A stretch of 64,000 bases of DNA. It comes from an uncultured Prevotella sp. (lineage in GTDB: Bacteria; Bacteroidota; Bacteroidia; Bacteroidales; Bacteroidaceae). Positions 940 through 63,303 of the stretch are shown one piece after another. A program made the position numbers and the translations under genes. The stretch is from the NCBI GenBank assembly GCA_900319715.1, contig ONPM01000004.1, forward strand, positions 1,739 through 65,738, written 5' to 3'. The notes under the pieces were generated by a model. It was not told where the DNA came from. It saw nothing but the letters and a program-made list of their open reading frames with translations, and searched no databases. The first letter of the stretch is position 1. Each line of letters begins with the position of its first letter.

Positions 940-1047
940 GTTTACTGTTTACAGTTTACGGTTTACAGTTGATTACTTCTATAGGTGGAATCCTCAGAAC
1001 GGCTTGCCAGCATATCATCTGTAAACTGTAAACCGTCAACTGTAAAC
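940..1047. repeat. Palindromic element with tandem-heptamer arms: (GTTTACA)n-core-(TGTAAAC)n
   Basis: Four GTTTACN units at 940-967, GTTGATTAC, a ~37-bp core, ATCATC, then four TGTAAAC-like units at 1020-1047. Confidence 0.9.
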
Positions 1048-1054
1048 CAAAAAA

Positions 1055-2179
1055 CTAAAACGCCACCTGCATCTGGGCCTGGAGCCAGTTGTAGTCCTTC
1101 GAACTGATATTCTCGCCACAGAGGCAACGGGTGTACTGTAACTGCATACGGCACTTCTTATAGAACCAATACTGGACGCCAATGGTAAGATTCGTCTGAT
1201 CCCAGCCGTCCACTTTCGTGTTACGGTCGAAGGTCTCGCCGGAGGCCACAATGTCGAGGGCATCAAAAACGGGAATGCTGGTGGTGACATAGCCACCCAT
1301 GCTACCCACTTCGCCGTCCTTACCACCCAGCCACTCTGCACGGATGCTGGCAGGACGGGCTTCCTTGTATTTCGCAGGTGAGTAGGCCGCTGTCTTATAT
1401 TCGGCACCCACCGAGTAACGGTTTCGCTTGTAGTTGTCGCCCACCTTGATGTCTGGGTTCCAGGCTGCTGTATTCACGGCACAGCCGGTACCGAGATAGC
1501 CTGATGCCACGAGGCGGAGACCGTTCATCGGACGCACCTCGAGTTTGGCGATAAAGTCTTTCTGGTTGTTCAGATCCCTGCGGTTGATACCCTGACCACT
1601 CATCAGGGCGAGGTTATAGCGGATGGCGCCCTTGGCCAGTTCGCCGTAGAGTTCGAGTCCCATGTCTCGGCCATAGTTCACGCCGTTGAGGGGGTCGGGA
1701 CCTTCGCCAGCCAGATAGAGCACGGCCTGCGAATAGACGTCGATGAGTTCAAGTTGCGTCGGAGACAACGGGTTCTCCATCGAATAGGCGTGTTTGAACT
1801 GTCCGAGACGGACGGTCAGCGAGTTATCTTTGGTGAGGCGATAGTCGGTGTAAAACTCCTGTACGACACTGGAGAAGTCGTGCATAAACATAAACGACCA
1901 TCGGTCTGTGATGCGTGCTTTAGCCCATAGCAGTGTGCGTTTAAGGTTATAGGCGTTAGTGGGTTTGCCGTTCGAGTCCTGATAGGACCATCCTCCCTGG
2001 GCATAGCCGTTAAAGGTGATACGACTCGTGAAATCTTTCAACCAGTCTGGTTCAGACTTCTTCTGTTCCTGTTGCCCCATAGCGGCAACGCTACTGAACA
2101 CGGCGAGCATCACCGCCAGTGTTCTTAGCAGAGCGAAACGGCCGTGCCGAGTGCTCAAGTTGCAAGTTTTCTTTTTCAT
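1055..2179 (-). CDS. Outer-membrane porin (phosphate-selective OprO/OprP-like)
   Basis: 374 aa with a signal peptide, amphipathic strands, RLGQFK and GRDMG motifs, and C-terminal Phe (MQVAF). Confidence 0.75.
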   Translation of the reverse strand: MKKKTCNLSTRHGRFALLRTLAVMLAVFSSVAAMGQQEQKKSEPDWLKDFTSRITFNGYAQGGWSYQDSNGKPTNAYNLKRTLLWAKARITDRWSFMFMHDFSSVVQEFYTDYRLTKDNSLTVRLGQFKHAYSMENPLSPTQLELIDVYSQAVLYLAGEGPDPLNGVNYGRDMGLELYGELAKGAIRYNLALMSGQGINRRDLNNQKDFIAKLEVRPMNGLRLVASGYLGTGCAVNTAAWNPDIKVGDNYKRNRYSVGAEYKTAAYSPAKYKEARPASIRAEWLGGKDGEVGSMGGYVTTSIPVFDALDIVASGETFDRNTKVDGWDQTNLTIGVQYWFYKKCRMQLQYTRCLCGENISSKDYNWLQAQMQVAF

Positions 2180-2216
2180 TTTTTCATCTGGTTAAGAATT
2201 AAATAGTTCTTGCGGC

Positions 2217-2226
2217 TGCAAAAGTA
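2217..2226 (-). promoter_or_regulatory. Bacteroidota -7 promoter element (TACTTTTGCA) for the porin-symporter pair
   Basis: Matches TAnnTTTG about 40 bp upstream of the porin start. Confidence 0.55.
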
Positions 2227-2301
2227 CAACATTTAACACAAACAAACGAATAAAATGAAAGAAATTTGCGCAAAAAGATATCAGAAAGCAAGCAGAAAGT
2301 C

Positions 2302-3828: not shown

Positions 3829-3880
3829 GTTACCAACTCATCTTTTTACCTTATTATAATATACTACTCGTTATCTCGGG

Positions 3881-3973
3881 GGCAAAGGTACAAAAAAAAC
3901 AATAAAACCTTGCAAATAAATAAAAGAAAACACATTTTCTTTTTCCATTTCGCTCGTTTTTCGTAACTTTGCA
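3881..3973. promoter_or_regulatory. Divergent Bacteroidota promoters (phosphoesterase / topB)
   Basis: TACCTTTG on the - strand at 3883-3890 and TAACTTTG on the + strand at 3964-3971, within an AT-rich intergenic region. Confidence 0.55.
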
Positions 3974-4000
3974 CTCGCAATTTCAAAACGAACGAATCAA

Positions 4001-6124
4001 ATGATTGTCTGCATTGCAGAGAAACCCAGTGTGGCCCGGGATATAGCACGCATATTGGGGGCCAACAGTTCCCACGACGGGTATATGGAAGGTAACGGCT
4101 ATCAGGTGACCTGGACTTTCGGGCATCTGTGTACGCTGAAGGAGCCTGGCGACTACACTCAGGCCTGGAAGCCGTGGGCACTGACTCAACTGCCGATGGT
4201 GCCCCAGCGATTCGGCATCAAACTGATTCCTGACCGCGGTATCGAGAAACAGTTTGCCATCATCGAGAGACTGATGCAGGCGGCAGACGGAATTGTGAAC
4301 TGTGGTGACGCCGGACAGGAGGGAGAACTCATCCAGCGCTGGGTGATGCAGAAGGCACAGGCCAAGTGTCCCGTCAAGCGTCTCTGGATCTCATCCATGA
4401 CCGATGAGGCCATCCGTGAGGGCTTTGCCAACCTGAAAGACCAGGGTGACTACCAGCCACTCTATCTTGCCGGCCTCAGCCGTGCTATCGGCGACTGGCT
4501 CTTAGGCATGAATGCCACCCGTCTTTACACCCTGAAATATGGCCAGAACCGACAGGTGCTCTCCATCGGTCGTGTGCAGACCCCTACCCTCGCCCTCATC
4601 GTGAACCGTCAGAAGGAGATCGAGAACTTCAAGCCTGAGCCCTATTGGGTGCTGGCAACCGTCTATCGGGATACCACCTTCACCGCCACCAAGGGGAAGT
4701 TCACCTCGAAGGAAGAGGGCGAGAAGGCCTTCGCCACCATCGAGGGCAAGCCCTTCACGGTAACGAAGGTGGAGAAGAAGGAGGGCAAGGAACAGCCACC
4801 GCAACTCTATGACCTCACCTCGCTACAGGTAGACTGTAACCGCAAGTTCGGCTACTCGGCAGAGATGACACTGAACCTCATCCAGAGCCTCTACGAGAAG
4901 AAGTTCACCACCTATCCCCGTGTAGACACCCAGTATCTGAGCGACGACATCTATCCCAAGTGCCCACAGACGCTGAATGGCCTCTATCAGGTGAAGTTTG
5001 CCGGCGTGGCTCCCTACGCAGAGTTTATCAAGCCCATCGGCGGAAAGGCCCTGAAGAAGTCGAAACGCGTTTTCGACACCTCGAAGGTGACCGACCACCA
5101 CGCCATCATCCCCACGGGCGTCATTCCCCAGAACCTCAGCGACGCCGAGCGCAGAGTGTTCGACCTCGTCGCCAGACGTTTTATCGGTGTGTTCCTGCCG
5201 GACTGTAAGTTCGCCACGACCACGGTTATTGGAGAGGTGAGAGGTGAGGGGTCAGAGGTAGGAGAACACACAGAGGCAGACGACCCCATTGAGTTTAAAG
5301 TCACAGGCAAGGAAATTCTCGACCCCGGCTGGCGCGTCGTCAGAGACAATAAGCCGGAATCAGAGAAAGAGGACATATCAGACACATCTCTTACCTCTGA
5401 CCTCTCACCTCTCACCTCAGAAAAAGACGAGGAGCGCACGCTCCCCACCTTCGTCAAGGGTGAATCGGGCGACCACAAGCCCACCCTCACCGAGAAATGG
5501 ACCACACCCCCACCTTATTATAATGAGGCCTCCCTGCTCAGGGCAATGGAGACGGCCGGGAAGTTCGTGGAAGACGAGACCCTCCGTGCGGCGATGAAGG
5601 AGAACGGCATCGGCCGGCCGTCGTCAAGAGCCGGCATCATCGAGACCCTCTTCAAGCGCCACTATATCAAACGTGACCGCAAACGCCTCATCGCCACCCC
5701 GACAGGTATCGAACTCATCGACCTCATCCGTGAGGAACTGCTCAAGAGTTGCGAACTGACGGGTATCTGGGAGAAGAAACTACGCGACATTGAACATCAG
5801 AAATACGACGCCCAGCAGTTCATCGAAGAACTGAAGCAGCAGGTGGCCGAGATCGTACAGGAGGTGATGAGCGACACCAGCAACCGTCGCGTCACCGTAC
5901 TGACGGATGCTGAACTGAAGAAAGTGAAGTCGCCCAAGACCGAGCCGGCCCCAAACAAGGACGCCAAGCCCAAGGCGACGAGAAAGAAAAAGACCGAGAC
6001 ACCCAAGGAGGGGGATGTCTGTCCGCTCTGCGGACAAGGTCATATCATCAAGGGCAAGACCGCCTATGGCTGTTCCCGTTGGAAGGAAGGCTGTACCTAT
6101 CGGCTACCCTTCGACACGAAATGA
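4001..6124 (+). CDS. topB: DNA topoisomerase III (type IA)
   Basis: IAEKPSVA TOPRIM start, DAGQEGE, SIGRVQTPTL, TYPRVD with the catalytic Tyr, GIGRPSSRA, and a C-terminal Zn ribbon CPLC...GC...C. Confidence 0.95.
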   Translation: MIVCIAEKPSVARDIARILGANSSHDGYMEGNGYQVTWTFGHLCTLKEPGDYTQAWKPWALTQLPMVPQRFGIKLIPDRGIEKQFAIIERLMQAADGIVNCGDAGQEGELIQRWVMQKAQAKCPVKRLWISSMTDEAIREGFANLKDQGDYQPLYLAGLSRAIGDWLLGMNATRLYTLKYGQNRQVLSIGRVQTPTLALIVNRQKEIENFKPEPYWVLATVYRDTTFTATKGKFTSKEEGEKAFATIEGKPFTVTKVEKKEGKEQPPQLYDLTSLQVDCNRKFGYSAEMTLNLIQSLYEKKFTTYPRVDTQYLSDDIYPKCPQTLNGLYQVKFAGVAPYAEFIKPIGGKALKKSKRVFDTSKVTDHHAIIPTGVIPQNLSDAERRVFDLVARRFIGVFLPDCKFATTTVIGEVRGEGSEVGEHTEADDPIEFKVTGKEILDPGWRVVRDNKPESEKEDISDTSLTSDLSPLTSEKDEERTLPTFVKGESGDHKPTLTEKWTTPPPYYNEASLLRAMETAGKFVEDETLRAAMKENGIGRPSSRAGIIETLFKRHYIKRDRKRLIATPTGIELIDLIREELLKSCELTGIWEKKLRDIEHQKYDAQQFIEELKQQVAEIVQEVMSDTSNRRVTVLTDAELKKVKSPKTEPAPNKDAKPKATRKKKTETPKEGDVCPLCGQGHIIKGKTAYGCSRWKEGCTYRLPFDTK
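5234..5418. repeat. 32-bp inverted repeat built of GAGGTGA heptamers inside topB
   Basis: 5234-5265 and 5387-5418 are reverse complements with 2 mismatches; the spacer is 121 bp. Confidence 0.9.
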
Positions 6125-6129
6125 TGACA

Positions 6130-6156
6130 GAGGCAGGCAATAAAATGCCTGTCTTT
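6130..6156 (+). terminator. Hairpin after topB
   Basis: GAGGCAGGCA-ATAAAA-TGCCTGTCTT (G:U pairs allowed), followed by T-rich sequence. Confidence 0.45.
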
Positions 6157-6171
6157 GCGTTTTAATAAGGT

Positions 6172-8406
6172 ATGCGAAAATGTCACATCCTCATCCTGAG
6201 CGTCGTCGGTGCCCTGCTGTTGATCAGTTGCGGGGCTGATCAGGCCATGAAGAAAGGCGATAAGTTCTATGCCGTCGGCGAATACTTCGATGCTGCCACA
6301 CAGTATCGGAAGGCCTATACCCATACACCCAGCAAACAGAGAGTCCTGAAAGGCCAAAGGGCCATGAAGGTGGCAGACTGTTATCGTCGCATCCACTTCA
6401 CCACGAAGGCCATCTCGGCTTACCAGAATGCACTGCGCTATAAGCAGGATGACTCGCTGACACATCTCTACCTGGGACAGTTGCACATGAGGAATGGCAG
6501 TTACAAGGAGGCCGCCAAGCATTTCCAGATGGCCATTGACTCCCTGTCTATGGTATATCATAATTCTAAGGAATCTAGGAACACAGGAGATTCTGAGCAA
6601 CGCTCTGATAAAGAAAATGCTCAATTTCTAAATTCCATAGACAATTATATCTCCTTAGCAAAAACAGGACTAAAGGCCGCTCAGCAGGCACCAGACTGGA
6701 AGAAAGAAGGCTCTGACTATACCATCAAACGGATGGACCTCTTCAACTCCCGTCGTGCCGAATACTCTCCGATGCTCAGCGGAGACGAGGACGAGCAACT
6801 CTACTTCACCTCCACCCGTAATCAGGCTCAAGGCGACGAATATAGTGGCATCACTGGCGCCAAGAATGCCGACATCTTCCTCTCACAGAAAGACGACAAG
6901 GGCAAGTGGAGCAAGCCCCAGACCATCGACTCGGAACTGAACTCCACAATGGACGAGGGTGCCTGCTGCTTCTCCCCCGACGGCAAGAGCATGTACCTGA
7001 CCATCTGCAAGACCGACCCCAACTATCCGCGCTATGCCACCATCGCCGTGTCGAATCGTAGCGACGCCTCATGGAGCAAGCCCACGGAACTGACGCTCTC
7101 AAAAGATACCCTCTCCAGTTTCGCCCATCCCGCCGTCTCGCCCGACGGACAGTGGCTCTACTTCGTCAGCGACATGCCCGGTGGCTTGGGAGGATTCGAC
7201 ATCTGGCGCTGTCAAATCCATGGCAATGAGGTCGGCAGTCTGGAGAATCTCGGTGAACCTGTCAACACCCCCGGCGACGAGATGTTCCCCACCTTCCGAC
7301 CCAACGGCGACCTCTACTTCTCCTCCGACGGCCATCCCGGACTCGGCGGACTAGATATCTTCATAGCTCGGGGGTACGGGGGAACGAAGGAACGGGGGAA
7401 CGAGAATAGTTCTACCACTGAAAGTAATCTCGAACCACCGTACTCCCGCGCCCCCGCACCCCCGAAAATAGAGATCGAGCACCCCGGTTTTCCCCTGAAC
7501 TCCCAGGGCGACGATTTCGGAATGACCTTCGAGGGAAAGCGCAACCAAGGCTACTTCTGCTCAAACCGTGGGGATACCAGAGGCTACGATCATATCTACA
7601 GTTTCTTTAATCCGGAGATCGTACAGACCGTAAAGGGCTGGGTGTACGAACAGGATGGCTACGAACTGCCTGCCGCTCAGGTTTACATGGTTGGCAACGA
7701 CGGCACGAACCTGAAACTGAGTGTCCGTGGCGACGGATCCTTCACCCAGGAGATCAAGCCCAACGTAGACTACGTACTGCTGGCCACCTGCAAGGGATTC
7801 CTGAACCATCAGGAGCAACTGCGAGTGGACCCCGTGACGAAGTCTGAAGAGTACGTGTTGCAGTTCCCTCTCGCCAATATCTCCGCCCCCGTACTGATTG
7901 AGAACATCTTCTACGATTTCGACAAGGCGACGTTGCGCCCGGAGTCTACCACCGCCCTCGACGAACTGGTACGGTTGCTGAACGAGAACCCGAACATCAC
8001 CATCGAACTCTCCGCCCACACCGACTACAAAGGCTCTGACGAATACAACGAAGGTCTGTCCCAGCGTCGTGCAGAGAGCGTGGTGAACTACCTGATAGAA
8101 CACGGCATCCCCTCAGACCGTCTCACGCCGAGAGGCTACGGCGAAGGAAAGCCCAAGACCATCAAACGCAAGGTGGCAGAAAGATATCCGTTCCTCAAGG
8201 AAGGGGATGTGCTGACAGAAGAGTACATCAACAAACTCCCGGAGGAACAGCAGGAACAGTGCAACCAGTTAAACCGTCGCACAGAGTTTATAGTGTTGCG
8301 GACAACTTACGGGCTGTTTGATAAGGCAGGTAAACTAATACAAATCCCACAACCAAAAGAATCATCCAAGGAGTCAGATGAAGTTCCGTCGTCGGAACTG
8401 TGGTAA
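6172..8406 (+). CDS. TPR/PD40/OmpA_C lipoprotein, PorE-like T9SS-associated peptidoglycan-binding protein
   Basis: Lipobox LLISC, TPR helices, PD40 repeats (FSPDGK, VSPDGQWLYFVSD, LYFSSDGHPG), and an OmpA_C domain (IFYDFDKATLR, SAHTD, LSQRRA, NRRTEF). Confidence 0.85.
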   Translation: MRKCHILILSVVGALLLISCGADQAMKKGDKFYAVGEYFDAATQYRKAYTHTPSKQRVLKGQRAMKVADCYRRIHFTTKAISAYQNALRYKQDDSLTHLYLGQLHMRNGSYKEAAKHFQMAIDSLSMVYHNSKESRNTGDSEQRSDKENAQFLNSIDNYISLAKTGLKAAQQAPDWKKEGSDYTIKRMDLFNSRRAEYSPMLSGDEDEQLYFTSTRNQAQGDEYSGITGAKNADIFLSQKDDKGKWSKPQTIDSELNSTMDEGACCFSPDGKSMYLTICKTDPNYPRYATIAVSNRSDASWSKPTELTLSKDTLSSFAHPAVSPDGQWLYFVSDMPGGLGGFDIWRCQIHGNEVGSLENLGEPVNTPGDEMFPTFRPNGDLYFSSDGHPGLGGLDIFIARGYGGTKERGNENSSTTESNLEPPYSRAPAPPKIEIEHPGFPLNSQGDDFGMTFEGKRNQGYFCSNRGDTRGYDHIYSFFNPEIVQTVKGWVYEQDGYELPAAQVYMVGNDGTNLKLSVRGDGSFTQEIKPNVDYVLLATCKGFLNHQEQLRVDPVTKSEEYVLQFPLANISAPVLIENIFYDFDKATLRPESTTALDELVRLLNENPNITIELSAHTDYKGSDEYNEGLSQRRAESVVNYLIEHGIPSDRLTPRGYGEGKPKTIKRKVAERYPFLKEGDVLTEEYINKLPEEQQEQCNQLNRRTEFIVLRTTYGLFDKAGKLIQIPQPKESSKESDEVPSSELW
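7369..7464. repeat. Palindromic element with tandem 8-mer arms, in frame in the PorE-like gene
   Basis: Four CGGGGGTA/CGGGGGAA-like units, the core GAGAATAGT...AGTAATCTC, then four NNCCCCCG-like units. Confidence 0.8.
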
Positions 8407-8677
8407 TGAACACTTCCAGACTGGTAATCACGCTGGCATAGAGCATCTGCAGACTGGCTTTCAACATCTCCCAGCCGTTGAACACGAAGAACAGCACGAG
8501 CCCAATAGCCGTGCAGAACCAAGTCCACAACAACGACAGCCGATGAGGGGCTAGCGACCTCTGGTCTACGCGCTCCACCCGTTCCATCACCCGCTCCGTA
8601 AAGCCATTGTCTTCAATCTGCTGCTGGGACGCCTGCTTGAAGAACTCTTCTATCAAAAGATTGTCTTTATCTGTCAT
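8288..8677 (-). CDS. Small membrane protein downstream of the ECF sigma factor (DUF5056-like, possible anti-sigma)
   Basis: 129 aa; N-terminal LIEEFF...IEDNGFTERVM motif and two TM segments; overlaps the sigma stop codon. Confidence 0.7.
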   Translation of the reverse strand: MTDKDNLLIEEFFKQASQQQIEDNGFTERVMERVERVDQRSLAPHRLSLLWTWFCTAIGLVLFFVFNGWEMLKASLQMLYASVITSLEVFITTVPTTELHLTPWMILLVVGFVLVYLPYQTARKLSATL

Positions 8678-9278
8678 AACCGTTTTGTTTTAAATAGTTA
8701 GCCATTTTCTCTTTTCCTCGCCGCAGATGCGACTTCACCGTATTCTCCGCGATACCTGTGATCTTGGCTATCTGGTCGATGGGATAGCCGTCGATGAGTT
8801 GTAGCGTGATGCACGTCCGTTCGTCTGGCTTCAACAGGGCGAGGGCTTGATGGATATCCATCTTGAGAGAGGAAGGAGAAACGAGGAGCGAGGAAGGAGA
8901 ATAGTCCTGCTGCAGAGATGAATTCTGCCGGTATATCTGTGGTTGAGAGTAATCTCCTTCCTCTTTCCTCCTTCCTCCTTCCTCGAAAGAGACCGTCTCA
9001 ACCTTCCTCTTTCTCACCTCGTCGTAAAACACATTATAGGCGATTCGCATCAGCCAAGTGGAGAAACTCGCCATGCCACGGAACTTCGTGATGTTCACAT
9101 AGGCCTTGATGAAGGTCTCCTGAGCCAGGTCGTCGCTCAACTGTTCATCGCCCAGTGTCTGGTTGAGAAAGAACCGACGCACAGGCGACTGATATTTCCT
9201 GACAAGTTGGTCAAAGGCCTTCTTGTTCCGGAATACTGCCACCTGCGTCACCAGGGCTATGTCGTTGAACTCCACCAT
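8667..9278 (-). CDS. ECF RNA polymerase sigma-70 factor
   Basis: Region 2 (DDLAQETFIKAY, FSTWLMRIAYN) and region 4 (IAKITGIAENTVKSHLRRG). Confidence 0.93.
   Translation of the reverse strand: MVEFNDIALVTQVAVFRNKKAFDQLVRKYQSPVRRFFLNQTLGDEQLSDDLAQETFIKAYVNITKFRGMASFSTWLMRIAYNVFYDEVRKRKVETVSFEEGGRRKEEGDYSQPQIYRQNSSLQQDYSPSSLLVSPSSLKMDIHQALALLKPDERTCITLQLIDGYPIDQIAKITGIAENTVKSHLRRGKEKMANYLKQNGYDR
8865..8984. repeat. Palindromic element with GAAGGAG/CTCCTTC heptamer arms, in frame in the sigma factor linker
   Basis: Purine-rich arm, core GAGAATAGT...GAGTAATCTC, then (CTCCTTC)n. Confidence 0.82.
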
Positions 9279-9288
9279 ATTTCTTTTT

Positions 9289-9417
9289 GTTTATAGTTTA
9301 TTGTTTATAGTTTATAGATGATTACTTCGATAGGCAGTTCTATAAGCAGTTCTATGGGCGTGCACGGTATTCATCTATAAACTATAAACACTAAACTATA
9401 AACTGTAAACACTAAAC
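9289..9417. repeat. Palindromic element (GTTTATA)4-GATGATTAC-core-GTATTCATC-(TATAAAC)6
   Basis: Read directly from the sequence; the core is nearly identical to the inverted copy at 63173-63303. Confidence 0.92.
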
Positions 9418-9608
9418 TATACCAATCTCCTTTCCGGCATCACGATCCACAGCACGATGTAGAAGATCAGTCCACAGAAGGCTGTAAAGAGCGTAAGGAA
9501 AGCGTAGGCTATACGCACCAGGACGGGATCAAATTCGAAATACTCTGCGAGTCCGCCGCATACACCGGCGATAACCCGGTCGTTTGAACGCATTAATCTC
9601 TTATTCAT
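9417..9608 (-). CDS. PspC domain protein
   Basis: RLMRSNDRVIAGVCGGLAEYF...YIVLWIVMP is the PspC signature. Confidence 0.92.
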   Translation of the reverse strand: MNKRLMRSNDRVIAGVCGGLAEYFEFDPVLVRIAYAFLTLFTAFCGLIFYIVLWIVMPERRLV

Positions 9609-10392: not shown

Positions 10393-11745
10393 ATGCAAAT
10401 TATGCAGTTACCGGAAGATTTCATCCGTGAGACAAGGCTGTTGATGGGCGAAGACCGCTTCAACCGCTTCCTCGGAGCCTTCGACGAAGAGGCCCCCGTG
10501 AGTATACGGATTAATCCGAGATATTCGAGGAGTGAGGAGTGTGGAGTGTGGAGTGAGAAATGTTCTGAGGCAGAATCAGCACCAGAGAGTAATCTCACTC
10601 CACACTCCTCACTCCTCACTCCACAAATCAAAGTTCCCTGGTGTCCCGAGGGCTTCTACCTCTCCGGTCGTCCCCAGTTCACCTTCGATCCCCTCTTCCA
10701 TGCCGGTTGCTACTACGTCCAGGAGGCCGCCTCGATGTTCGTCACCCATATTTTGCGGGCGGTAGCAAATTCTTGCGTCCCTTCGGTAGCAAGCGGCATA
10801 GCCGAGTCTTCACTCTTCACTCTTCACTCTTCACTTAATGTCCTCGACCTCTGTGCCGCTCCCGGTGGTAAGTCGACGGCCATGCGGACAGTCCTTCCCG
10901 AGGGTAGCATCCTCGTGAGCAACGAACCCAACCCCACACGGGCTCAGATCCTCCTGGAGAACATCACGAAGTGGGGCTGGCCCGACTGTATCGTGACCAA
11001 CAACTATCCCCGTGACTTCAGGAAGGCGAAGGCGAAGTTCGACCTTATCCTCTGCGACGTACCCTGTTCGGGTGAAGGCATGTTCCGCAAGGATCCACAG
11101 GCCATCAGCGAATGGAGCCTGCAGAACGTTGAGAAGTGCTGGCGCCTGCAACGGGAGATCGTCGCCGATGCCTGGGAGTGTCTGAATCCCGGTGGCTTAT
11201 TAATATATAGTACGTGTACCTTTAATATAAAGGAGAATGAAGAGAACGTGCGATGGATCCTCGACACCTACGATGCCGAGCCCCTCGCCATCCCCACCGA
11301 TCCGTCATGGAACATCACCGGTTCCCTTCTTCCCGGCTTCGACGCCCCCGTCTATCGTTTCATCCCTGGCATCACCCGCAGTGAGGGGTTGTTCATGTGC
11401 GTTCTGCGCAAGTTCGGGGGTACGGAGGTACGGAGGTACGGAGGTTCGAGATATGACTATAGGCAGATCAAGGGTTTGAGTATTCTCGTACCCCCGCTCC
11501 ACCATGCCCCCGTACCCCCGACCATCGACCTCCCCTACTCCGACGCATTAAAATATCTCCGGGGCGAGGCCCTCGTCCTCCCACCCGACACCCCTCAGGG
11601 CATCGTGACCGTCACCTACAAGGGTGCCCCCCTCGGTCCCGTCAAGAACATCGGTTCCCGAGCCAACAACCTATACCCCAAGCCCTGGCGCATCAAGACC
11701 ACCCACTTGCCCACCGAGCCCGTGGTAATCATCTGTAAACCGTAA
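10393..11745 (+). CDS. RsmB/NOP2/Sun-family rRNA m5C methyltransferase (RsmF-like); start may be 10402
   Basis: YYVQEAASM, LDLCAAPGGKS, DVPCSGEGMFRK, YSTCT, and C-terminal RANNLYPKPWRI. Confidence 0.92.
   Translation: MQIMQLPEDFIRETRLLMGEDRFNRFLGAFDEEAPVSIRINPRYSRSEECGVWSEKCSEAESAPESNLTPHSSLLTPQIKVPWCPEGFYLSGRPQFTFDPLFHAGCYYVQEAASMFVTHILRAVANSCVPSVASGIAESSLFTLHSSLNVLDLCAAPGGKSTAMRTVLPEGSILVSNEPNPTRAQILLENITKWGWPDCIVTNNYPRDFRKAKAKFDLILCDVPCSGEGMFRKDPQAISEWSLQNVEKCWRLQREIVADAWECLNPGGLLIYSTCTFNIKENEENVRWILDTYDAEPLAIPTDPSWNITGSLLPGFDAPVYRFIPGITRSEGLFMCVLRKFGGTEVRRYGGSRYDYRQIKGLSILVPPLHHAPVPPTIDLPYSDALKYLRGEALVLPPDTPQGIVTVTYKGAPLGPVKNIGSRANNLYPKPWRIKTTHLPTEPVVIICKP
10527..10624. repeat. Palindromic element with GAGGAGT/GTGGAGT heptamer arms, in frame in the RsmF-like gene
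   Basis: (G[A/T]GGAGT)4, then GAGAAATG...AGGCAGAATC...AGTAATCTC, then (ACTCC[A/T]C)4. Confidence 0.9.
10770..10834. repeat. Dispersed ~37-bp repeat followed by (TCTTCAC)4, in frame in the RsmF-like gene
   Basis: 10770-10795 matches the reverse complement of 13010-13035 at 25/26 positions. Confidence 0.85.
11415..11520. repeat. Palindromic element with CGGAGGTA/TACCCCCG 8-mer arms, in frame in the RsmF-like gene
   Basis: Four 8-mers, the core GAGATATGACTATAGGCAGATCA...GTATTCTC, then four complementary 8-mers. Confidence 0.85.
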
Positions 11746-11761
11746 ACTGTAAACTGTAAAC
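11725..11761. repeat. Half element GTAATCATC-(TGTAAAC)4 carrying the last codons and stop of the RsmF-like gene
   Basis: Read directly from the sequence; encodes VIICKP*. Confidence 0.85.
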
Positions 11762-11776
11762 AAAAAAATAAAACAT

Positions 11777-12571
11777 ATGAAACAATATCTCGACATCCTC
11801 AACCGCATCCTCACCGAAGGCACAGAGAAAGGTGACCGTACAGGCACAGGTACCATCAGCATCTTCGGCACCCAGTCGCGCTACAACCTCGATGACGGTT
11901 TCCCCCTGCTCACCACAAAGAAACTTCATCTGAAGTCCATCATCTACGAACTGCTCTGGTTCCTCAAGGGCGACACCAACGTCAAGTACCTCCAGGAACA
12001 TGGTGTCCGTATCTGGAACGAGTGGGCCGACGAGAACGGCGAGCTCGGACCTGTCTATGGTCACCAGTGGCGTTCATGGCCCGATTACAACGGTGGCACG
12101 ATAGACCAGATCCAATACGTGCTCGACCAGTTGAAGAACAACCCCAACTCCCGACGCATGATTGTCTCCGCCTGGAACGTGGCAGAGGTGAATCAGATGG
12201 CACTCCCGCCCTGTCACACCATCTTCCAGTTCTATGTGGCCGGTGACCGTCTGTCGCTCCAACTCTACCAACGGTCGGCAGACACCTTCCTCGGCGTACC
12301 CTTCAACATTGCCTCCTATGCCTTGCTCCTGATGATGATGGCACAGGTGACGGGCTACAAACCCGGTGATTTCATCCACACCACGGGTGACACCCACCTC
12401 TACCTGAACCACATCGAACAGGCTCGCCTCCAACTCACCCGTGAACCCCGTCCCCTGCCTCAGATGAAGATCAATCCTGATGTCAAGTCGCTCTTCGATT
12501 TCCAGTATGAGGACTTCGAACTCATCGGTTACGATCCCCATCCACATATCAAAGCCGAAGTAAGTGTTTAA
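11777..12571 (+). CDS. thyA: Thymidylate synthase
   Basis: [28 protein letters not shown] and [18 protein letters not shown]. Confidence 0.98.
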
Positions 12572-12573
12572 TA

Positions 12574-12738
12574 GTTTATAGTTTAATGTTTATAGTTTAT
12601 AGTTGATTACTTCTAAAGGCAGATCACAATAGCGAAGATAATCATGAAGGGCTTGCTAGGTAATCATCTATAAACTATAAACTATAAACAATAAACAGTA
12701 AACAATAAACTATAAACTATAAACTTTAAACTATAAAC
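12574..12738. repeat. Palindromic element (GTTTATA)4-GTTGATTAC-core-GTAATCATC-(TATAAAC)10
   Basis: Read directly from the sequence; fills almost all of the thyA-folA gap. Confidence 0.92.
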
Positions 12739-12751: not shown

Positions 12752-13333
12752 ATGATCTCAATAATAGCAGCAGTAGCAAAGAACCGGGCCATCGGATACA
12801 AGAACAAGTTAATCTACTGGCTCCCCAACGACCTGAAGCGCTTCAAGGCCCTTACCACGGGCCACACGATCATCATGGGGCGCAACACCTTCCTCTCCCT
12901 ACCCAAGGGAGCCCTCCCCAACCGTCGTAACATCGTCTTAAGCCGAAGCGCTTTCACTTCTCCCCCTAAGTTAGGGGGAGTTAGAGGGGGTCTGCGCTCG
13001 GCCGAAGGACGCTTGCTACCGGAGGGACGCAAGAACAACAGCCAATGTTCCTCCCTCTACCCTGGTTGCGATGTCTACCCCTCCCTCGAAGAGGCTCTTG
13101 CCCACTGCACCCCCGACGAGGATATCTACATCATCGGCGGAGCCTCCGTCTACCGTCAGGCCCTCCCCCTCGCCGACCGTCTTTGTCTCACGGAGATTGA
13201 CGACACCCCCGCCGAGGCCGACACCTTCTTCCCGCCTTACGAAGATGACTGGAAAGAAGAACAGCGCGAAGACCATGACGTCGACGAGAAGCACGCTCAC
13301 CGCTACGCCTTCGTCGACTACATCCGTAAATAA
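12752..13333 (+). CDS. folA: Dihydrofolate reductase with a ~30-35 aa insertion
   Basis: IIAAVAKNRAIG, DLKRFKALT, IMGRNTF, LPNRRNIVLS, IIGGASVY and ADTFFP; lies downstream of thyA. Confidence 0.95.
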   Translation: MISIIAAVAKNRAIGYKNKLIYWLPNDLKRFKALTTGHTIIMGRNTFLSLPKGALPNRRNIVLSRSAFTSPPKLGGVRGGLRSAEGRLLPEGRKNNSQCSSLYPGCDVYPSLEEALAHCTPDEDIYIIGGASVYRQALPLADRLCLTEIDDTPAEADTFFPPYEDDWKEEQREDHDVDEKHAHRYAFVDYIRK

Positions 13334-13369: not shown

Positions 13370-14203
13370 TTATGAAGTATAAGTGTGTACGCTGGTGCCC
13401 TGGGCCGAAGGCAGGTAGTTGATGCCCCACCAGCACATCTGAAGCAACACAAACGAGACGAGGAGAACCCCAAGAGCCAGACGCGGATTGTGATTCGGCA
13501 ACTGTCGGTAATGTATATAAATAAGGTACGCGAACCAAGTGATAGCCGCCCACGTCTCCTTCGGGTCCCACGACCAGTAGTGCCCCCAGGCCTCCTTCGC
13601 CCAGAGAGCACCGAAGAGCATACCGAAGGTCATAAAGGCAAAACCCACATAGACGAGATTATCCGTAATGGAAAGTTCGGTGGTGAGGGTCTCCGACTTC
13701 TCACCTCTTGCCTCTAACTTCTCACCTCTCACCTCTAACCTCTTACCTCTTACCAAAACAAACAACGCCATCACCGTTGCCGCGCCAAGAAGGGCGTAGG
13801 CAAACATATAGACTATCACATGAGGTGCAAACCACGGACTCTGCAGGGCCGGCATCAGTGTCTTCGAATGAATCTCCGGTTTAAAGAGGTTCACACAGAT
13901 GAACACCAGCGACAAGATTGTCGAGAACGTCAGGATCCACTTGTACTTCCAGCGTGAATAGACCATCAGTCCCGCCAACGGCAGGAAGAACGAATACCAC
14001 AGTCGTGTCTCCCCCATCGTCCTCAATGGAGGCCGTTCCAACGAGATCCACATCGACAGGATAAACCCGAAGAACACCAGCAGGCCCACGACCGTCGTCA
14101 AATAGGCTACTGCAGACTTCTCTTTCCATGCAGACCAGGCCCCTATGCCCCACATCAGCACCGCCACCACCGCAAAATATACAAACTCCTCCCAGGTAAT
14201 CAT
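13370..14203 (-). CDS. ccsA: Cytochrome c biogenesis protein CcsA/ResC (system II)
   Basis: WWD domain WAKEAWGHYWSWDPKETW, LMPALQSPWFAPH, and multiple TM helices. Confidence 0.9.
   Translation of the reverse strand: MITWEEFVYFAVVAVLMWGIGAWSAWKEKSAVAYLTTVVGLLVFFGFILSMWISLERPPLRTMGETRLWYSFFLPLAGLMVYSRWKYKWILTFSTILSLVFICVNLFKPEIHSKTLMPALQSPWFAPHVIVYMFAYALLGAATVMALFVLVRGKRLEVRGEKLEARGEKSETLTTELSITDNLVYVGFAFMTFGMLFGALWAKEAWGHYWSWDPKETWAAITWFAYLIYIHYRQLPNHNPRLALGVLLVSFVLLQMCWWGINYLPSAQGTSVHTYTS
13701..13749. repeat. Solo arm of seven TCACCTC-like heptamers, in frame in ccsA
   Basis: Same unit as the topB arms; encodes RGKRLEVRGEKLEARGE. Confidence 0.8.
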
Positions 14204-14259
14204 CTGTAAACCGTAAACTATAAACTGTAAACCGTAAACTGTAAACCGTAAACTAAAAC
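14196..14259. repeat. Half element GTAATCATC-([T/C]GTAAAC)7 containing the ccsA start codon
   Basis: On the - strand GATGATTAC supplies ATG ATT AC. Confidence 0.85.
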
Positions 14260-55199: not shown

Positions 55200-55227
55200 T
55201 CTTTCAACTTTTCACTTTTTCACCTTT

Positions 55228-57072: not shown

Positions 57073-57106
57073 ATCAACTCTTTTTCACCTTTTCACTTTT
57101 TCACCT

Positions 57107-58147
57107 TTACAATGGCACTTCATGATGCCCTGCCTCTTTCCAGTCGAGGGTGACGCTGACTGCCAATCCCGGCTCGTCAGACTCCAGACTGCCATCGGAA
57201 GACATCCGGGCATGGAGAATCTTCAACTGCGCTGCCAGCAAAGGATTCTTGACTCCTATGACGCTCTTCGTCACAGTCCCATCAGCCAAAAAGGCATAAA
57301 CGTGTAACTCCCACAGGGCATCAGGAGCATCGATAGAGGCACGAGGGTCTTCCACTTCAGTCACAAGACGCGTCGACGGACCTGACGGATTCTTTGACGG
57401 GAAATTGACGGTACAGAAGCACTGCTGGTTGTCGCTGCCCGTATTGATCTTATCTGTCACAATCATCGGCGGTCTTTCGGAATAGACATACGAACTGTCT
57501 GCTATATTAAAAGATGTGGCAAACCCCGTGGCAAACACTTTCAGGTCCTTAAGGGTTGCCTTGCTGGTATCGAGGATCAGACCGGCGGCACAGTTTGCCA
57601 TATACAGACGTACAAAGATCGTCTGGTCATCATTTTTCTTCATCCTGATGGCCTCTCTTGCTGTGAACAGGCCTGTCTTATGAGTACTGATGGTATCACT
57701 GCGAGACTGCAGGAACTGCGCCGTTCGACAATGATTGCCCCCTTCTTGGGTGACGATCCCGTTTCCATCCACATTTGCGGTCGCCAGATGCATGTAATCA
57801 CGGTAAGGGATATAGAGTGTATAACTCATCTCGTTGGCATCCATCTGGTGCTGTTCATGATGCAGACGGGCGAAATCGCCCTGAGTGTCGTAGAACGAGA
57901 GGTCCAAGTCATGGGCATAGTCAGAGAAAACAGGAGAAAGATATCTCCTCAGCGCCTCCAACAGCCGGGCATCAGTCTTCTTATCCAACTCTTTCTGGAG
58001 TTCGATAGACAGGTTGGTCACCAGATGCAGTTCGTAATCCAGTTTCAATGTCTCATCACAGTCGCTCAGGTCTTCATCAATCGCCGAGCAGCCAGAGAAT
58101 ACGACCGCCATAACCATCCCAAAGATGATGCTGACTATGCTCTTCAT
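57107..58147 (-). CDS. FimB/Mfa2-like anchor pilin lipoprotein
   Basis: FSGCSAIDEDLSDC is an Mfa2-type N-terminus with a second Cys and no early TR site; C-terminal VTLDWK. Confidence 0.72.
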   Translation of the reverse strand: MKSIVSIIFGMVMAVVFSGCSAIDEDLSDCDETLKLDYELHLVTNLSIELQKELDKKTDARLLEALRRYLSPVFSDYAHDLDLSFYDTQGDFARLHHEQHQMDANEMSYTLYIPYRDYMHLATANVDGNGIVTQEGGNHCRTAQFLQSRSDTISTHKTGLFTAREAIRMKKNDDQTIFVRLYMANCAAGLILDTSKATLKDLKVFATGFATSFNIADSSYVYSERPPMIVTDKINTGSDNQQCFCTVNFPSKNPSGPSTRLVTEVEDPRASIDAPDALWELHVYAFLADGTVTKSVIGVKNPLLAAQLKILHARMSSDGSLESDEPGLAVSVTLDWKEAGHHEVPL

Positions 58148-58152
58148 CTCTC

Positions 58153-60087: not shown

Positions 60088-60110
60088 ATCTATTCCCTTT
60101 TTTATTATTG

Positions 60111-60737
60111 TCAGTTAATGATATACACGATATTAACGCCCAACTGGGGCAGAAGGAATATACGGTCATCCTTACCGTAATACGTGCCACAGTGCGGACA
60201 GTCGTACTCCTTAAACCAGGCATAGCCAATGGCCACACCAGCCTCGGCCTCAATACGCCAGTCACGACTCAAGATCCAAGAATAACCATACTTCCCTCCG
60301 AGAGCCAACAAGTCGCCCTGCAACCGGCGCTCACGGACGGTCTTATAAAGTCCCAACGGGAACTTAACATTACCCACGTTGAAATGGCTGTAGATGGCAT
60401 CAGCCTCAAAATAGCCTTTATGGAAGACGGAGTCATTCACATACTTTCGTGCCCGAAAAGAAAAAAGCATGTGACGCCATTTCTTGTTCTTTTCCTTATC
60501 TATATCCCAGGCATTCATTCCTGCCAACAGACCAACAGTCCAAGTGGAGTCGACCCTTACATCAACACCCAGATTAGGAGACAACGTAGCATCGTACAAA
60601 AGATTGGTGCGCAATGCCACCCTTGGGAGATTCCGCTCCATGCCATCGGACTGCTGTGCGAGCAACGGTTTTCCACAGAGGAGACTAAAAAGCAATATAT
60701 ACAAATACTTCATTCCAATGAGGCTTTTTTCTATCAT
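60111..60737 (-). CDS. DUF3575-like small outer-membrane beta-barrel typical of Bacteroidales fimbrial loci; start may be the second Met
   Basis: ALRTNLLYDATLSPNLG, GYSWIL..WRIEAEAGVAIG and CPHCG. Confidence 0.8.
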   Translation of the reverse strand: MIEKSLIGMKYLYILLFSLLCGKPLLAQQSDGMERNLPRVALRTNLLYDATLSPNLGVDVRVDSTWTVGLLAGMNAWDIDKEKNKKWRHMLFSFRARKYVNDSVFHKGYFEADAIYSHFNVGNVKFPLGLYKTVRERRLQGDLLALGGKYGYSWILSRDWRIEAEAGVAIGYAWFKEYDCPHCGTYYGKDDRIFLLPQLGVNIVYIIN

Positions 60738-60755
60738 CTGTCAGTTAAAGAACAA

Positions 60756-60765
60756 TGCAAAGATA
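60756..60765 (-). promoter_or_regulatory. -7 promoter element TATCTTTGCA for the pilus operon
   Basis: TAnnTTTG match just upstream of the DUF3575-like gene. Confidence 0.55.
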
Positions 60766-60944
60766 CTCATTTCTTATCAATCGAAAGACTTTTCTGCTGA
60801 CAAATGTCCCGTATTTAACATCAATTAACCGTATTAATATTAAATAGGTATAGTTTAAGGCTTTTAGGGAACCCGTCTTCTTTAATTTTCGTTAATAACT
60901 AAGGTTCATCTTATCACTTCCCGCCAAGATTGGAACTTTATTCG

Positions 60945-60954
60945 TAACTTTGCA
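60945..60954 (+). promoter_or_regulatory. -7 promoter element TAACTTTGCA for the TonB-dependent receptor
   Basis: TAnnTTTG match about 45 bp upstream of the ATG at 60999. Confidence 0.55.
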
Positions 60955-60998
60955 CCGCTTTTCGATAAGGGAAGCCATCAATTTTATTATCACACAAC

Positions 60999-63173
60999 AT
61001 GTACAAGCCAACATTCAACAAGCGCCAAGTGCTCGTGTTCCATCATTTCGGGAACAAGGGCTACTCGCTGTTCGCCTGTCTGGGCCGGGAGGTGGTGTGC
61101 AGCGTGCTCTCCGTAGCAACGCTGACCTATGCCTCGGCTGAGAGTGTCAGCACGGACCCCGTGGTGACCGACTCGACAGCCACCACGACAGCCCGCGAGA
61201 TGATGCTCGAGGAGGTCAGCGTGACCGGCTCGAGGGCGCCCCTGACCAAGAGTCAGGCTGCGAGAATGGTCACTGTACTGGAACGTGCCGACTTTGCGCA
61301 GGCCCCAGTACAAAGTATTAACGACTTACTGAAATACGCTGTCGGCGTCGATGTAAGGCAACGAGGCCCTATCGGTGCCCAGACGGACATCTCCATCCGA
61401 GGCGGCACATCAGAGCAGATCATCCTGTTGCTCAACGGCATCAACATCTGTGACCCCCAGACCGGCCACAACGCGATGGACTTGCCAGTAGACCTGAGCG
61501 AAGTGGAACGCATCGAGGTGATTGAAGGGCCCGCAGGAAGGATCTATGGGACATCATCGCTCGTCGGAGCGATTAACATCGTGACAATGGAAAGTGGAAA
61601 GTGGAAAGAGGAAGGTGTTTCGAGGAAAGAGGAAAGAGGAAAGAGGAATGAGATGACTCTGCACGCCGAAGGAGGATCATACGGCTATGCCCACCTCGGC
61701 TTCAGGTATTCTCACTCCACACTCCTCACTCCGCACTCCTCGAAACTCACTCCACACTCCTCGAAACACGCTCCACTCTCCTCGTTAAGCCATTCCCTCT
61801 CTGGGAACTACAGCCGCAGCGACGGTTGGAGCCGGTCGAAGGCAGGACACCTGAACACAGACTTCAGCGGCTCGAAGGCCTTCTACCAGGGACAGTATGA
61901 AGACAACGACCTGAGGCTTCACTGGCATGCAGGTATGGCCGACAAAGGATGGGGATCAAGCACCTTCTACGCCTCACCCAAATGGCAGGCAGATGAGCAA
62001 TATGAGCACACCACAAAAATTTACACAGCCATACAAGGCGAGAACAAGCGTGGACGACTACACCTGAGCGGCAACATCTACTGGAATCAGAACAAAGACC
62101 GTTATGAAGGCTATCGTGGACAAGCAGACAAAATGAAATACAACTATAACCGCACTGACGTCTATGGTGTCAGTCTCAACAGTTATTTCGACTGGGAATC
62201 AGGAAATCCAGACCGTATCAGGAACAGGACCGCCTTCGGTGCAGAACTGCGGAATGAAGACCTTGTCAGCGGCAACCTGGGCGAGCCTCTGTCGCAGACA
62301 CATCACATCTGTGGTACAGACCGAGACTACACCCTCGGCCTGAACCGGACGAACATCAGCGGATATCTGGAGCACAATTTAATACTAAATAAATTGACAG
62401 TTTCTGCGGGCATCGTAGCCGTCAAAAATACCTGGAGCAATATGAATATGACGGTATACCCCGGTGTGGACATCAGTTACCGTCCGTCATCCCATTGGCG
62501 GATTCATGCCTCTTACAACACCTCACTGCGCATGCCGTCGTTTACAGAGATGTACTACAAACTCCAAGGTTACAGTGCCGCCCCCCATCTGAAGCCAGAG
62601 GAGATGCAGGCCTTCGAAATAGGCGTAACCTCTTACTTCTCACCTTTTACCGCTCACTTCGCCGTATGGCATCACCACGGCAAGAACATGATCGACTGGA
62701 TCATGGACACCACCAAAGGCAGTGAGGCTGTATGGGAGAGCGTCAACCACACCTCCATCAACAGCACAGGGTTCGAGACAGACATGCAAATCAACCTACA
62801 GCGTTGCCGCTTTAAAGTCTCATACAGTTACATTCACCAGGACAAGGAACAAGAGACAGGCATCGTGTCGCAATATGCGCTGGAATACCTGCGCCACAAA
62901 CTGGTGGCCCATGCCATGCTACCAATCATCAAACGGGTGTCACTCGACCTGAACCTGAGATGGCAGGACCGTGTGGGCAGTTATACAGACTTCAACGGTG
63001 AGGTTTGCGGCTATAAACCATATACCCTCGCAGATGTCCGTCTCACCTGGCAGGAGCGGAGGTGGAAGGTTTATGTCGAAAGCAACAACCTCTTCGACAC
63101 CCGCTATCACGACTACGGTCTTGTAGAGCAACCTGGCCGTTGGCTCATCGCCGGGGCTTCGGTTACACTCTAG
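60999..63173 (+). CDS. TonB-dependent receptor (BtuB/CirA-like, not SusC type)
   Basis: LEEVSVTG TonB box, plug motifs ISIRGG and VERIEVIEGP..IYG..GAINIVT, and C-terminal NLFDTRY..PGR. Confidence 0.92.
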   Translation: MYKPTFNKRQVLVFHHFGNKGYSLFACLGREVVCSVLSVATLTYASAESVSTDPVVTDSTATTTAREMMLEEVSVTGSRAPLTKSQAARMVTVLERADFAQAPVQSINDLLKYAVGVDVRQRGPIGAQTDISIRGGTSEQIILLLNGINICDPQTGHNAMDLPVDLSEVERIEVIEGPAGRIYGTSSLVGAINIVTMESGKWKEEGVSRKEERGKRNEMTLHAEGGSYGYAHLGFRYSHSTLLTPHSSKLTPHSSKHAPLSSLSHSLSGNYSRSDGWSRSKAGHLNTDFSGSKAFYQGQYEDNDLRLHWHAGMADKGWGSSTFYASPKWQADEQYEHTTKIYTAIQGENKRGRLHLSGNIYWNQNKDRYEGYRGQADKMKYNYNRTDVYGVSLNSYFDWESGNPDRIRNRTAFGAELRNEDLVSGNLGEPLSQTHHICGTDRDYTLGLNRTNISGYLEHNLILNKLTVSAGIVAVKNTWSNMNMTVYPGVDISYRPSSHWRIHASYNTSLRMPSFTEMYYKLQGYSAAPHLKPEEMQAFEIGVTSYFSPFTAHFAVWHHHGKNMIDWIMDTTKGSEAVWESVNHTSINSTGFETDMQINLQRCRFKVSYSYIHQDKEQETGIVSQYALEYLRHKLVAHAMLPIIKRVSLDLNLRWQDRVGSYTDFNGEVCGYKPYTLADVRLTWQERRWKVYVESNNLFDTRYHDYGLVEQPGRWLIAGASVTL
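61589..61783. repeat. Two short tandem arrays in frame in the TonB receptor: (GGAAAG[T/A])n and GTATTCTC-(ACTCC[A/T]C)n
   Basis: Arrays at 61589-61647 and 61706-61783. Confidence 0.8.
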
Positions 63174-63303
63174 TTGATTGTTTATAGTTTAAAGTTTATA
63201 GTTTATAGATGAAAACCTTGCACGCCCATAGAACAGCCTATAGAAGTAATCATCTATAAACTATAAACTTTAAACTATAAACAAAAATCTGTAAACTGTA
63301 AAC
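63173..63303. repeat. Palindromic element (GTTTATA)n-core-GTAATCATC-(TATAAAC)n between the convergent TonB receptor gene and dnaA
   Basis: Inverted copy of the element at 9289-9417. Confidence 0.92.

Follow-up and report, generated by a model that had tools for sequence, protein, structure and literature searches.

Palindromic elements with exchangeable heptamer arms in a rumen Prevotella genome and their probable link to gene cassettes of the rRNA intervening-sequence type

Rickettsia palindromic elements (RPE), about 100 bp long, lie in frame in housekeeping genes and add peptide segments to the encoded proteins, and the eukaryotic foldback (FB) transposons, which have a known transposase partner, carry long inverted terminal repeats built of short tandem repeats. 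The intervening sequence (IVS) in the 23S rRNA of Coxiella has a 28-bp stem, tandem heptamers of variable number and an open reading frame (ORF) for S23p; RNase III cleaves it, and a mobile nature has been suggested for it (PMC4990558). In Geobacter metallireducens, families of elements with four tandem hepta- or octamers occur, mostly as inverted pairs, between and within genes (PMC2700814), and in Xanthomonas convergent arrays of the heptamer GGGAATC form inverted repeats (PMC4692102). In the repetitive extragenic palindromic (REP)/REPIN-RAYT and the Ssn-NTS systems, hundreds of hairpin repeats occur together with a small transposase or nuclease gene framed by the repeats (PMC3116915; PMC11893778). 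Here we describe a family of palindromic elements in a 64,000-nucleotide stretch of DNA, referred to as the window, from an uncultured Prevotella sp. (contig ONPM01000004.1, positions 1,739 to 65,738, of assembly GCA_900319715.1). The genome is a 3.19-Mb draft of 192 contigs, 89% complete, from a rumen Prevotella-like bacterium. We propose, with a probability of about 0.6, that these elements are gene-less miniatures and solo ends of IVS-type hairpin cassettes with heptamer arms, a selfish and widely distributed kind, and that they were amplified in this lineage. A literature search for heptamer or palindromic repeats in Prevotella, and for short tandemly repeated repetitive (STRR) and small dispersed repeat (SDR) sequences, found nothing specific.

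The standard layout of an element is about four units of 7 or 8 bp, a short junction, a core of 30 to 65 bp, the mirrored junction, and about four reverse-complement units. The stem is thus made of arms of about 4 × 7 bp plus a 9-bp junction, and the stems fold at z-scores of -5 to -10. Arrays were collected with Tandem Repeats Finder in the window and in the whole genome, and the 7- and 8-mer rows were merged afterwards. Genome-wide, there are 920 rows of period 7 against 123 of period 6, with 109 unit types, and the merged 7/8-mer arrays number 1,012. Where neighbouring arrays with matching units lie no more than 300 bp apart, they are inverted in 178 cases and direct in 6, and the left arm shows the G-rich strand in 159 cases against 12 for the C-rich strand. 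A reading of the hairpins as terminators was rejected: whichever strand is read, a T-run precedes the element and an A-run comes after it, the reverse of a terminator, in which the U-run follows the hairpin.

The junctions and cores tie the different arm types together. Among the 166 full elements in the genome, to which all the statistics on junctions, core words, core clustering and open frames refer, 118 have A[AT]TAC no more than 14 nt from an arm, as against 1.3% of random genomic 14-mers, which is an enrichment of about 50-fold. This junction accompanies at least eight arm types, and other arm classes have AATTTGCYRCCGCC or TTAAG as alternative junctions. The word AGGCAG/CTGCCT is found in 34 cores, compared with 2.25 expected from shuffles, and spans six arm classes. 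When cores are clustered, one group of 74 mixes the GTTTACA and GTTTATA classes with three others, and small groups unite unlike units (AGTCATT with AATCTTAC; ACAGATT with AGTGTTGC). The original prediction, made from the letters of the window, had been of a single design in which mirrored arms of variable sequence share an inner junction and some core words. That design is real and far beyond chance: the junction is enriched beside arrays relative to the control, and the cores do not cluster strictly by arm type. The accompanying statement that the two arms always mirror each other holds as a strong rule, in 82 of 85 typed elements, but is not absolute; 61589-61784, C190:15760 and site A of the RsmF gene of a relative depart from it.

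Could such a pattern arise from ordinary microsatellite slippage, with inverted repeats formed by chance? Strains do differ in the number of units; in the close relative RELA, an arm of the element at 9289 has two units fewer and the array at 14196 has one more. Nevertheless, the excess of inverted over direct pairs, the junction enrichment, the cores common to several copies and the consistent G-rich polarity of left arms refute this explanation, to which we attach next to no credence.

The link to gene-bearing cassettes comes from the remainder of the genome. It contains five genes of PF05635, the four-helix-bundle family to which the protein of the 23S rRNA IVS belongs, and all five lie between inverted heptamer arrays, each cassette containing one gene only. 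Four of the five cassettes have the junction words of the window: GAGAATAGT..GTAATCTC, GATGATTAC..GGTAATCATC, GAGATTAC..GTATTCTC and TTATGATTAC..GTAATCATAA. In addition, the second core family of the short elements, GATATGACTGGAGGCCG..CCGCANAGGTAATCA, equals both ends of the C190 cassette. The loci of the PF13366 ('GxxExxY') nuclease follow the same plan: 5 of 5 lie between inverted repeats, at least four of them with tandem 7- to 9-mer units. The five PF05635 proteins are only 17-47% identical to one another, so the design is old, and their arms differ. It had been stated earlier that the window holds no candidate enzyme, and this is true of the window, but elsewhere in the genome PF05635 and PF13366 genes are enclosed by these arms and junctions. 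Since no element of the window contains a PF05635 ORF, while the five full cassettes elsewhere do, the window copies are to be regarded as derivatives and not as full members of the IVS type. They reside in or between protein genes and not in helix 9, 25 or 45 of 23S rRNA.

The association extends to other bacteria. In another genus, a small gene (locus L018) lies between (TATAGTT)5 and (CTATAAA)5; its product looked like a four-helix-bundle (PF05635) protein, and it aligns at 35-45% identity with three of the PF05635 proteins here. A scan of species genomes with a four-protein alignment of four-helix-bundle proteins (a six-protein alignment was too divergent) yielded 80 loci spread over many phyla. 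At 45 of 76 PF05635 loci, the top inverted repeat between upstream and downstream sequence scores at least 14, a value reached in none of 76 shuffled controls. In the other phyla, the arms are nearly always tandem 6- to 8-mers specific to the locus, and in the listed examples the upstream arm appears, by eye, G-rich and C-poor.

Gene capture by arm pairs was also considered and rejected. Mirrored arms 0.3 to 4 kb apart mostly enclose ordinary genes (hisIE, glycoside hydrolases, ABC transporters), and inverted pairs of solo arrays (23 G-rich-left and 8 C-rich-left) are no commoner than direct pairs (37); no such "cargo" is claimed here.

A complete cassette consists of a small gene, encoding the PF05635 four-helix bundle or, in a parallel set, the PF13366 PD-(D/E)XK nuclease, set between long inverted arms, each of about four tandem heptamers plus, in this lineage, a GA..ATTAC junction. 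We propose that the elements of about 100 bp have retained the arms, the junction and about 20 nt of each end of the cassette interior, and have multiplied in one rumen Prevotella lineage. If the self-complementarity of the arms is constrained and their sequence is not, units would be expected to become homogenised and matched, and whole arms to switch type in place. It is tempting to go further and to suppose a pan-bacterial class of mobile elements that has a mechanism of its own, the arms being regenerated from a seed to four units, or actively matched, with the Avd-like four-helix-bundle or GxxExxY protein as the mobility factor. The arms could then vary freely in sequence, and such elements could settle in rRNA, in operon gaps and in coding frames alike. 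We consider this extension improbable.

The elements of the window, none of which is assigned a strand, are as follows.

940..1047: full element, intergenic; (GTTTACN)4, GTTGATTAC, a 44-bp core, ATCATC, (TGTAAAC)4, with a T-run and an A-run outside
5232..5259: left arm (GAGAGGT-type) with junction GAGAACAC and an AGGCAGA box, in frame in topB (ORF 4001..6124, plus strand)
5388..5418: mirrored right arm (CTCTCAC-type), in topB
7369..7464: full element with 8-mer arms (CGGGGGTA-type), junctions GAGAATAGT on the left and GTAATCTCG on the right, in frame in an OmpA-family ORF (6172..8406)
8865..8984: full element with GAGGAAG-type arms, junctions GAGAATAGT and GTAATCTC, in frame in an extracytoplasmic function (ECF) sigma-factor ORF (8667..9278, minus strand)
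9289..9421: full element, intergenic; (GTTTATA)4, GATGATTAC, core, GTATTCATC, (TATAAAC)6.7
10527..10625: full element; (GAGGAGT/GTGGAGT)4, GAGAAATG, core with GAGGCAGAATC, GTAATCTC, (ACTCCNC)4, in frame in an RsmF-family ORF (10393..11745)
10757..10835: half element; junction GGCGGTAGCAAAT and (TCTTCAC)4, the junction being split by a nested 36-bp mini-insert at 10771-10806
11415..11520: full element; (CGGAGGTA)4, CGAGATATGAC, core TATAGGCAGATCAAGGGTTTGA, GTATTCTCG, (TACCCCCG)4, in frame in RsmF
11725..11761: solo right end; GGTAATCATC(TGTAAAC)4 followed by an A-run, providing the final codons and the stop codon of RsmF
12566..12738: full element between thyA and folA; (GTTTATA)5, TTGATTAC, a 63-bp core, GGTAATCATC, (TATAAAC)10
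13696..13754: solo array (TCTCACC)8, in frame in a cytochrome c assembly ORF (13370..14203, minus strand)
14196..14253: solo right end; GGTAATCATC(TGTAAAC/CGTAAAC)7
61589..61784: complete element with non-mirrored arms; (GGAAAGN)8, GAGATGAC, core, GGTATTCTC, (ACTCCNC)8, in frame in ORF 60999..63173 (724 residues)
63171..63307: full element, intergenic; (GTTTATA)5, GATGAAAAC, core, GTAATCATC, (TATAAAC)7

At every coordinate given in the original prediction, the contents are as it described them. Two of its half elements, those at 11725 and 14196, are solo ends with a junction, whereas 61706 belongs to the right arm of the complete element at 61589-61784, and it had overlooked the mirrored arms in topB, the half element at 10757-10835 and the solo array at 13696-13754. 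Folded as RNA, the element at 940..1047 reaches -37.5 kcal/mol (z -5.05) and that at 10527..10625 reaches -69.2 kcal/mol (z -10.2); the z-score for 11415..11520 is -5.9. The core of the 9289 element is, except for a 12-bp duplication, nearly identical to the reverse complement of 63208-63254. The ORF of the RsmF-type methylase contains three in-frame copies, and the ATG of the junction at 14196 (ATGATTACC) is the start codon of the ORF at 13370..14203. No Rfam family matches the window at gathering thresholds.

The mini-insert nested at 10771-10806 belongs to a set of about 26 copies, another being at 12990-13030 in folA and about 24 elsewhere in the genome. These are 36-40 bp long, consist of TTCTTGCGTCCC, 4 nt, GGTAGCAAGCG and then GCAAAGCCGAGCG or a variant, and lie preferentially inside the arms or junctions of larger elements. 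The folA gene itself (dihydrofolate reductase, ORF 12752..13333) has an in-frame insertion of about 35 residues at 12955-13060, with a palindrome (CCCCCTAAGTTAGGGGGAG) and the mini-insert copy, and a relative with 81% identity has a shorter version of it. Short 7/8-mer arrays with no obvious partner occur at 52770-52795, 55202-55238, 57082-57108 and 62628-62657 (ACATTGA, TTTTCACT, TTTTCACC and ACCTCTTACC) and may be solo or decayed arms. A 246-bp tandem repeat (35134-35792; 2.7 copies, 83% matches) lies in the region of a giant repeat protein. Elsewhere in the genome (G000) there is a third element family (C103:870-1051, C150:52383-52565, C176:750-932 and about eight others), in which the junction is TTAAG/CTTAAT, the core measures 125-165 bp and is AT-rich and palindromic at its centre, and the arms are of at least eight unit types.

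The abundance of the elements is a property of the lineage. The pattern GTTTAYAGWTGATTAC, which joins junction and unit, has 223 matches here with at most one mismatch, 39 in one congener and 0-4 in the 148 other species of the genus that were sampled; a longer pattern has 231 matches here versus 0-1 in 300 genomes of the family. Fifteen pairs of copies that are unlinked or differently flanked have cores at least 93% identical.

Comparison with relatives shows both insertion and turnover. Among RsmF relatives of 75-98% identity, it is at the three element sites that the gene varies, the rest of it being conserved. The element at 10527 is an insertion with respect to orthologues: one relative has no element there, and another shares only the left arm, the core beside it being different and the right arm unrelated. 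The mini-insert at 10771-10806 is cleanly absent from RsmF genes 98%, 93% and 84% identical to this one, with a possible TCTT duplication. The element at 8865 is absent from the 81%-identical relative, whose sigma factor has 178 residues in place of the 203 here. The original prediction had suggested that orthologous loci be compared for empty sites and target duplications, and the relatives' sites are indeed empty or differently filled; the matter of duplications is taken up below. As a separate observation, the element at 11415 stands where the orthologues in other species of the genus (L004, L007-L009 and L011) have an RsmF segment of about 90 residues, so that this insertion came with, or after, a deletion the size of a domain.

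Comparison of strains over longer range is limited to syntenic stretches of 21 kb. In one genome, with 97.4% identity over 14.7 kb, nine sites are occupied by the same element as here, some with changed unit numbers, but wholly different elements with identical boundaries stand at 7369, 11415 and 12566, that is, at three of about 12 sites. At 7369 it has an unrelated element of 133 bp, also seen in two sequencing runs, and at 12566 it has GTTTACA arms with another core. Replacement at identical boundaries implies either a strong target preference or exchange at sites that are already occupied. The 7369 copy and its near flanks in the 81%-identical relative (L119) are, in turn, almost identical to those of the window, a degree of similarity that suggests recombinational import between lineages.

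What happens to the arms in this process? Units of both arms change together, and faster than the cores diverge. At the site orthologous to 940, the window has GTTTACA arms and the 81%-identical relative has GTTTATA arms around the same core. At the RsmF site of 11415, a relative keeps the core and has 7-mer GAGAGGT arms in place of the 8-mer CGGAGGTA. Unlinked copies within this genome with cores 93-96% identical also carry differing arm types. The arms are homogeneous as well: in 258 four-unit arms, C occupies unit position 6 in all four units of 179, in none of 65, and in some of 14. Independence would predict about 183 mixed arms, so that pure arms number 244 of 258 where about 75 are expected. 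The seventh base of the unit does vary within arms, and variant units, such as the TCA unit that avoids stop codons and its mirror GTTGAC, are found at corresponding positions in numerous copies.

A dedicated process had been inferred earlier, one that builds arrays outward from a GATTAC signal and keeps the arms matched. In such a process, a seed unit beside the junction would be copied again and again to about four units on both sides, either continuously or whenever the element is mobilised, and arms would be regenerated, not inherited. The purity of arms, their matching within elements, and the change of arms around a kept or near-identical core all accord with it. So does the modal length of exactly four units, found in 199 of 345 GTTTAYA ends (with a T-run outside), four heptamers being also the number in Geobacter (PMC2700814) and Coxiella (PMC4990558). 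Moreover, the G-rich strand running 5′ to 3′ toward the core is the polarity expected from 3′-end addition at a broken target. However, the inheritance of subfamily-specific variant units, including TCA, by many copies fits a copying of whole elements, and together with the fixed modal length and the chimeras with unlike, non-mirrored arms it disfavours obligatory building de novo. Nor has any candidate resembling a reverse transcriptase or polymerase been found in the 89%-complete genome. The GATTAC junction is specific to this lineage and is absent from the cassettes of other phyla. What stands of the earlier inference is that an arm is exchanged as a whole around an unchanged core and that units are homogenised; a dedicated enzyme working outward from GATTAC is not required, and we regard one as unlikely.

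Template switching at quasi-palindromes is established for bacteria. Slippage, template switching and selection on the stem could together yield the same arm pattern with no new enzyme. An arm would become uniform through slippage, by collapsing and expanding again, and its partner would be matched to it by template switching at quasi-palindromes or by ectopic conversion, for which more than 300 near-identical ends are available.

As to the agent of movement, PF05635 and PF13366 genes are the only ones found to share element ends. By analogy with small nucleases framed by repeats (PMC11893778), the PF13366 nuclease would be a more plausible candidate mover than PF05635. Profile searches gave no match for a Y1 transposase (PF01797) in the 89%-complete genome, while control genomes gave matches, and none for a reverse transcriptase (PF00078) in the same assembly; REP/RAYT, IS200/IS605 and retroelement models are therefore disfavoured. 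TTAC is the target word of IS608. The junction includes this word, and the hairpin-forming units and inverted doublets would also fit palindromes of the REP/REPIN type, or derived from IS200/IS605, that are moved by a Y1 (RAYT/TnpA) transposase. Yet the arms are tandem repeats with no conserved REP head and the genome search was negative, and such an origin seems very improbable.

The elements within coding frames bear on whether they serve the host. Full elements lie in open frames with margins of 150 nt in 30 of 166 cases (18%); for random segments the figure is 66%. There is no such case among the 27 elements of the GTTTATA class, in which the unit contains stops on both strands, and the coding copies belong to stop-avoiding subfamilies, for example, one with the TCA variant and its mirror, translated as FTVDSLQFTDDY..STVNCKPSTVN, and another with SEECGVRSENTP..GNLTPHSTLLTP. 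For RsmF, topB and the sigma factor, the elements have been demonstrated to be insertions relative to orthologues. We suppose that copies arriving in genes would survive only when they keep the frame and contain no stop codon, in which case they would add about 30 residues to the protein.

An alternative is that the host selects the elements as RNA or DNA structures, such as RNase III stems, insulators or stabilisers of transcripts, or arrays for protein binding, and that they are not selfish. The hairpins are very stable, many ends coincide precisely with the borders of genes, whose start or stop codons they provide, and RNA-library contigs traverse elements, although contigs cannot show processing. 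The stems of rRNA IVSs are substrates of RNase III (PMC4990558), which might cut those of the present elements as well, and the similar arrays of Geobacter were read as regulator sites by the authors of that genome (PMC2700814). Such a role would, however, sit poorly with a copy number specific to one lineage, with orthologous sites that are empty or otherwise occupied in relatives, with thirty copies within the frames of housekeeping genes, and with a depletion from coding sequence of the kind expected for harmful inserts. We hold it to be somewhat less likely still than the dedicated process discussed above.

Several points weigh against derivation from mobile gene cassettes. For the main core family (TTCTATAGGCAG..GGCTTGCCAGG), the assembly, which is 89% complete, contains no gene-bearing parent that matches exactly, and 63 of the 166 cores are singletons in the clustering. 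In topB, about 120 bp of native, conserved sequence separate the arms at 5232 and 5388, so that mirrored arms stand at two distinct points; the segment IEFKVTGKE..GWRVV between them is present in all homologues aligned, some of which lack one arm. Insertion at a single point cannot account for the topB arms. No target-site duplication was seen at the sites compared with orthologues, where the outer ends of the arms are ambiguous and T-runs and A-runs border the GTTTACA class. Among near-identical strains only replacements were seen, together with the clean indel of the nested 36-bp mini-insert, and no clean filled/empty pair for a full element. Contigs from four sequencing runs, of which those of the metagenomes break at elements, likewise showed neither a full element as a clean filled/empty allele nor a joint confined to RNA, but contigs cannot exclude splicing or cleavage. 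Movement was not seen directly in the strains and contigs compared. Neither PF05635 nor PF13366 proteins are known to move DNA.

The IVSs of rRNA and the heptamer repeats of bacteria have gone unexplained for about thirty years, and in this genome they are tied together. Gene-bearing cassettes, hundreds of gene-less hairpins whose ends are the same, solo ends that supply start and stop codons, and in-frame copies in a topoisomerase, a sigma factor and an rRNA methylase coexist in it. The lineage is a workable test bed, being of a cultivable rumen type with many sequenced close relatives, and sites differ between genomes that are 97% identical. It also offers a measurable oddity, in that all eight units of an element change together. 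An agent of mobility, if one is found, would represent a novel mode of DNA movement; should no such agent exist, the elements would be a clear case of concerted evolution driven by palindromes and reshaping proteins.

How do the elements compare with the systems described so far? The MITEs (miniature inverted-repeat transposable elements) share terminal inverted repeats and small size with them, but the elements with the ends described here encode PF05635 or PF13366 proteins and no known transposase. Diversity-generating retroelements, which pair Avd with a reverse transcriptase, differ in that this genome has no PF00078 and the cassettes are single-gene. The REP/REPIN-RAYT and Ssn-NTS systems are alike in that hundreds of hairpin repeats coexist with a small gene framed by repeats; the framed genes here are nevertheless PF05635 and PF13366, not RAYT or GIY-YIG, no Y1 transposase was found, and it is the design that is conserved, not the repeat sequence. 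Compared by description, RPEs are likewise small palindromic in-frame inserts; in contrast, they conserve their sequence within families, where the arms here are exchangeable tandem heptamers, and the phyla differ, as does the link, found here, to a gene-bearing parent cassette.

For eukaryotic FB transposons, which are far larger, the likeness is one of analogy only. In cyanobacteria, Elhai et al. in 2008 are said to have described STRR heptamers genome-wide with very small mobile inserts nested in them, which we take as a lead only; the likeness lies in genome-wide tandem heptamers and, here, about 26 nested inserts of 36-40 bp, and the difference in the phylum.

The nearest precedents are the bacterial heptamer arrays and the rRNA IVSs, and the novelty of the design is accordingly partial, since portions of it are already in print (PMC4990558, PMC2700814, PMC4692102). 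The Geobacter and Xanthomonas arrays were read as regulator sites or G-quadruplex repeats, and those reports name no gene family, no analysis of junctions or cores, and no change of arms in situ. The 23S rRNA IVSs of Leptospira and Coxiella burnetii come closest: they have terminal inverted repeats with a stem of about 28 bp, tandem heptamers of strain-variable number beside an ORF of the same family, PF05635, and a sporadic distribution for which a selfish or mobile nature has been proposed (PMC4990558). Unlike them, the present elements stand outside rRNA, between protein genes or in frame within them, have mostly lost the ORF, number in the hundreds and have a lineage-specific GA..ATTAC junction. 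They represent neither a new arm-building system nor a categorically new one; the kind is known but poorly understood, and what is new is the gene-less burst, the in-frame copies and the evidence for arm switching.

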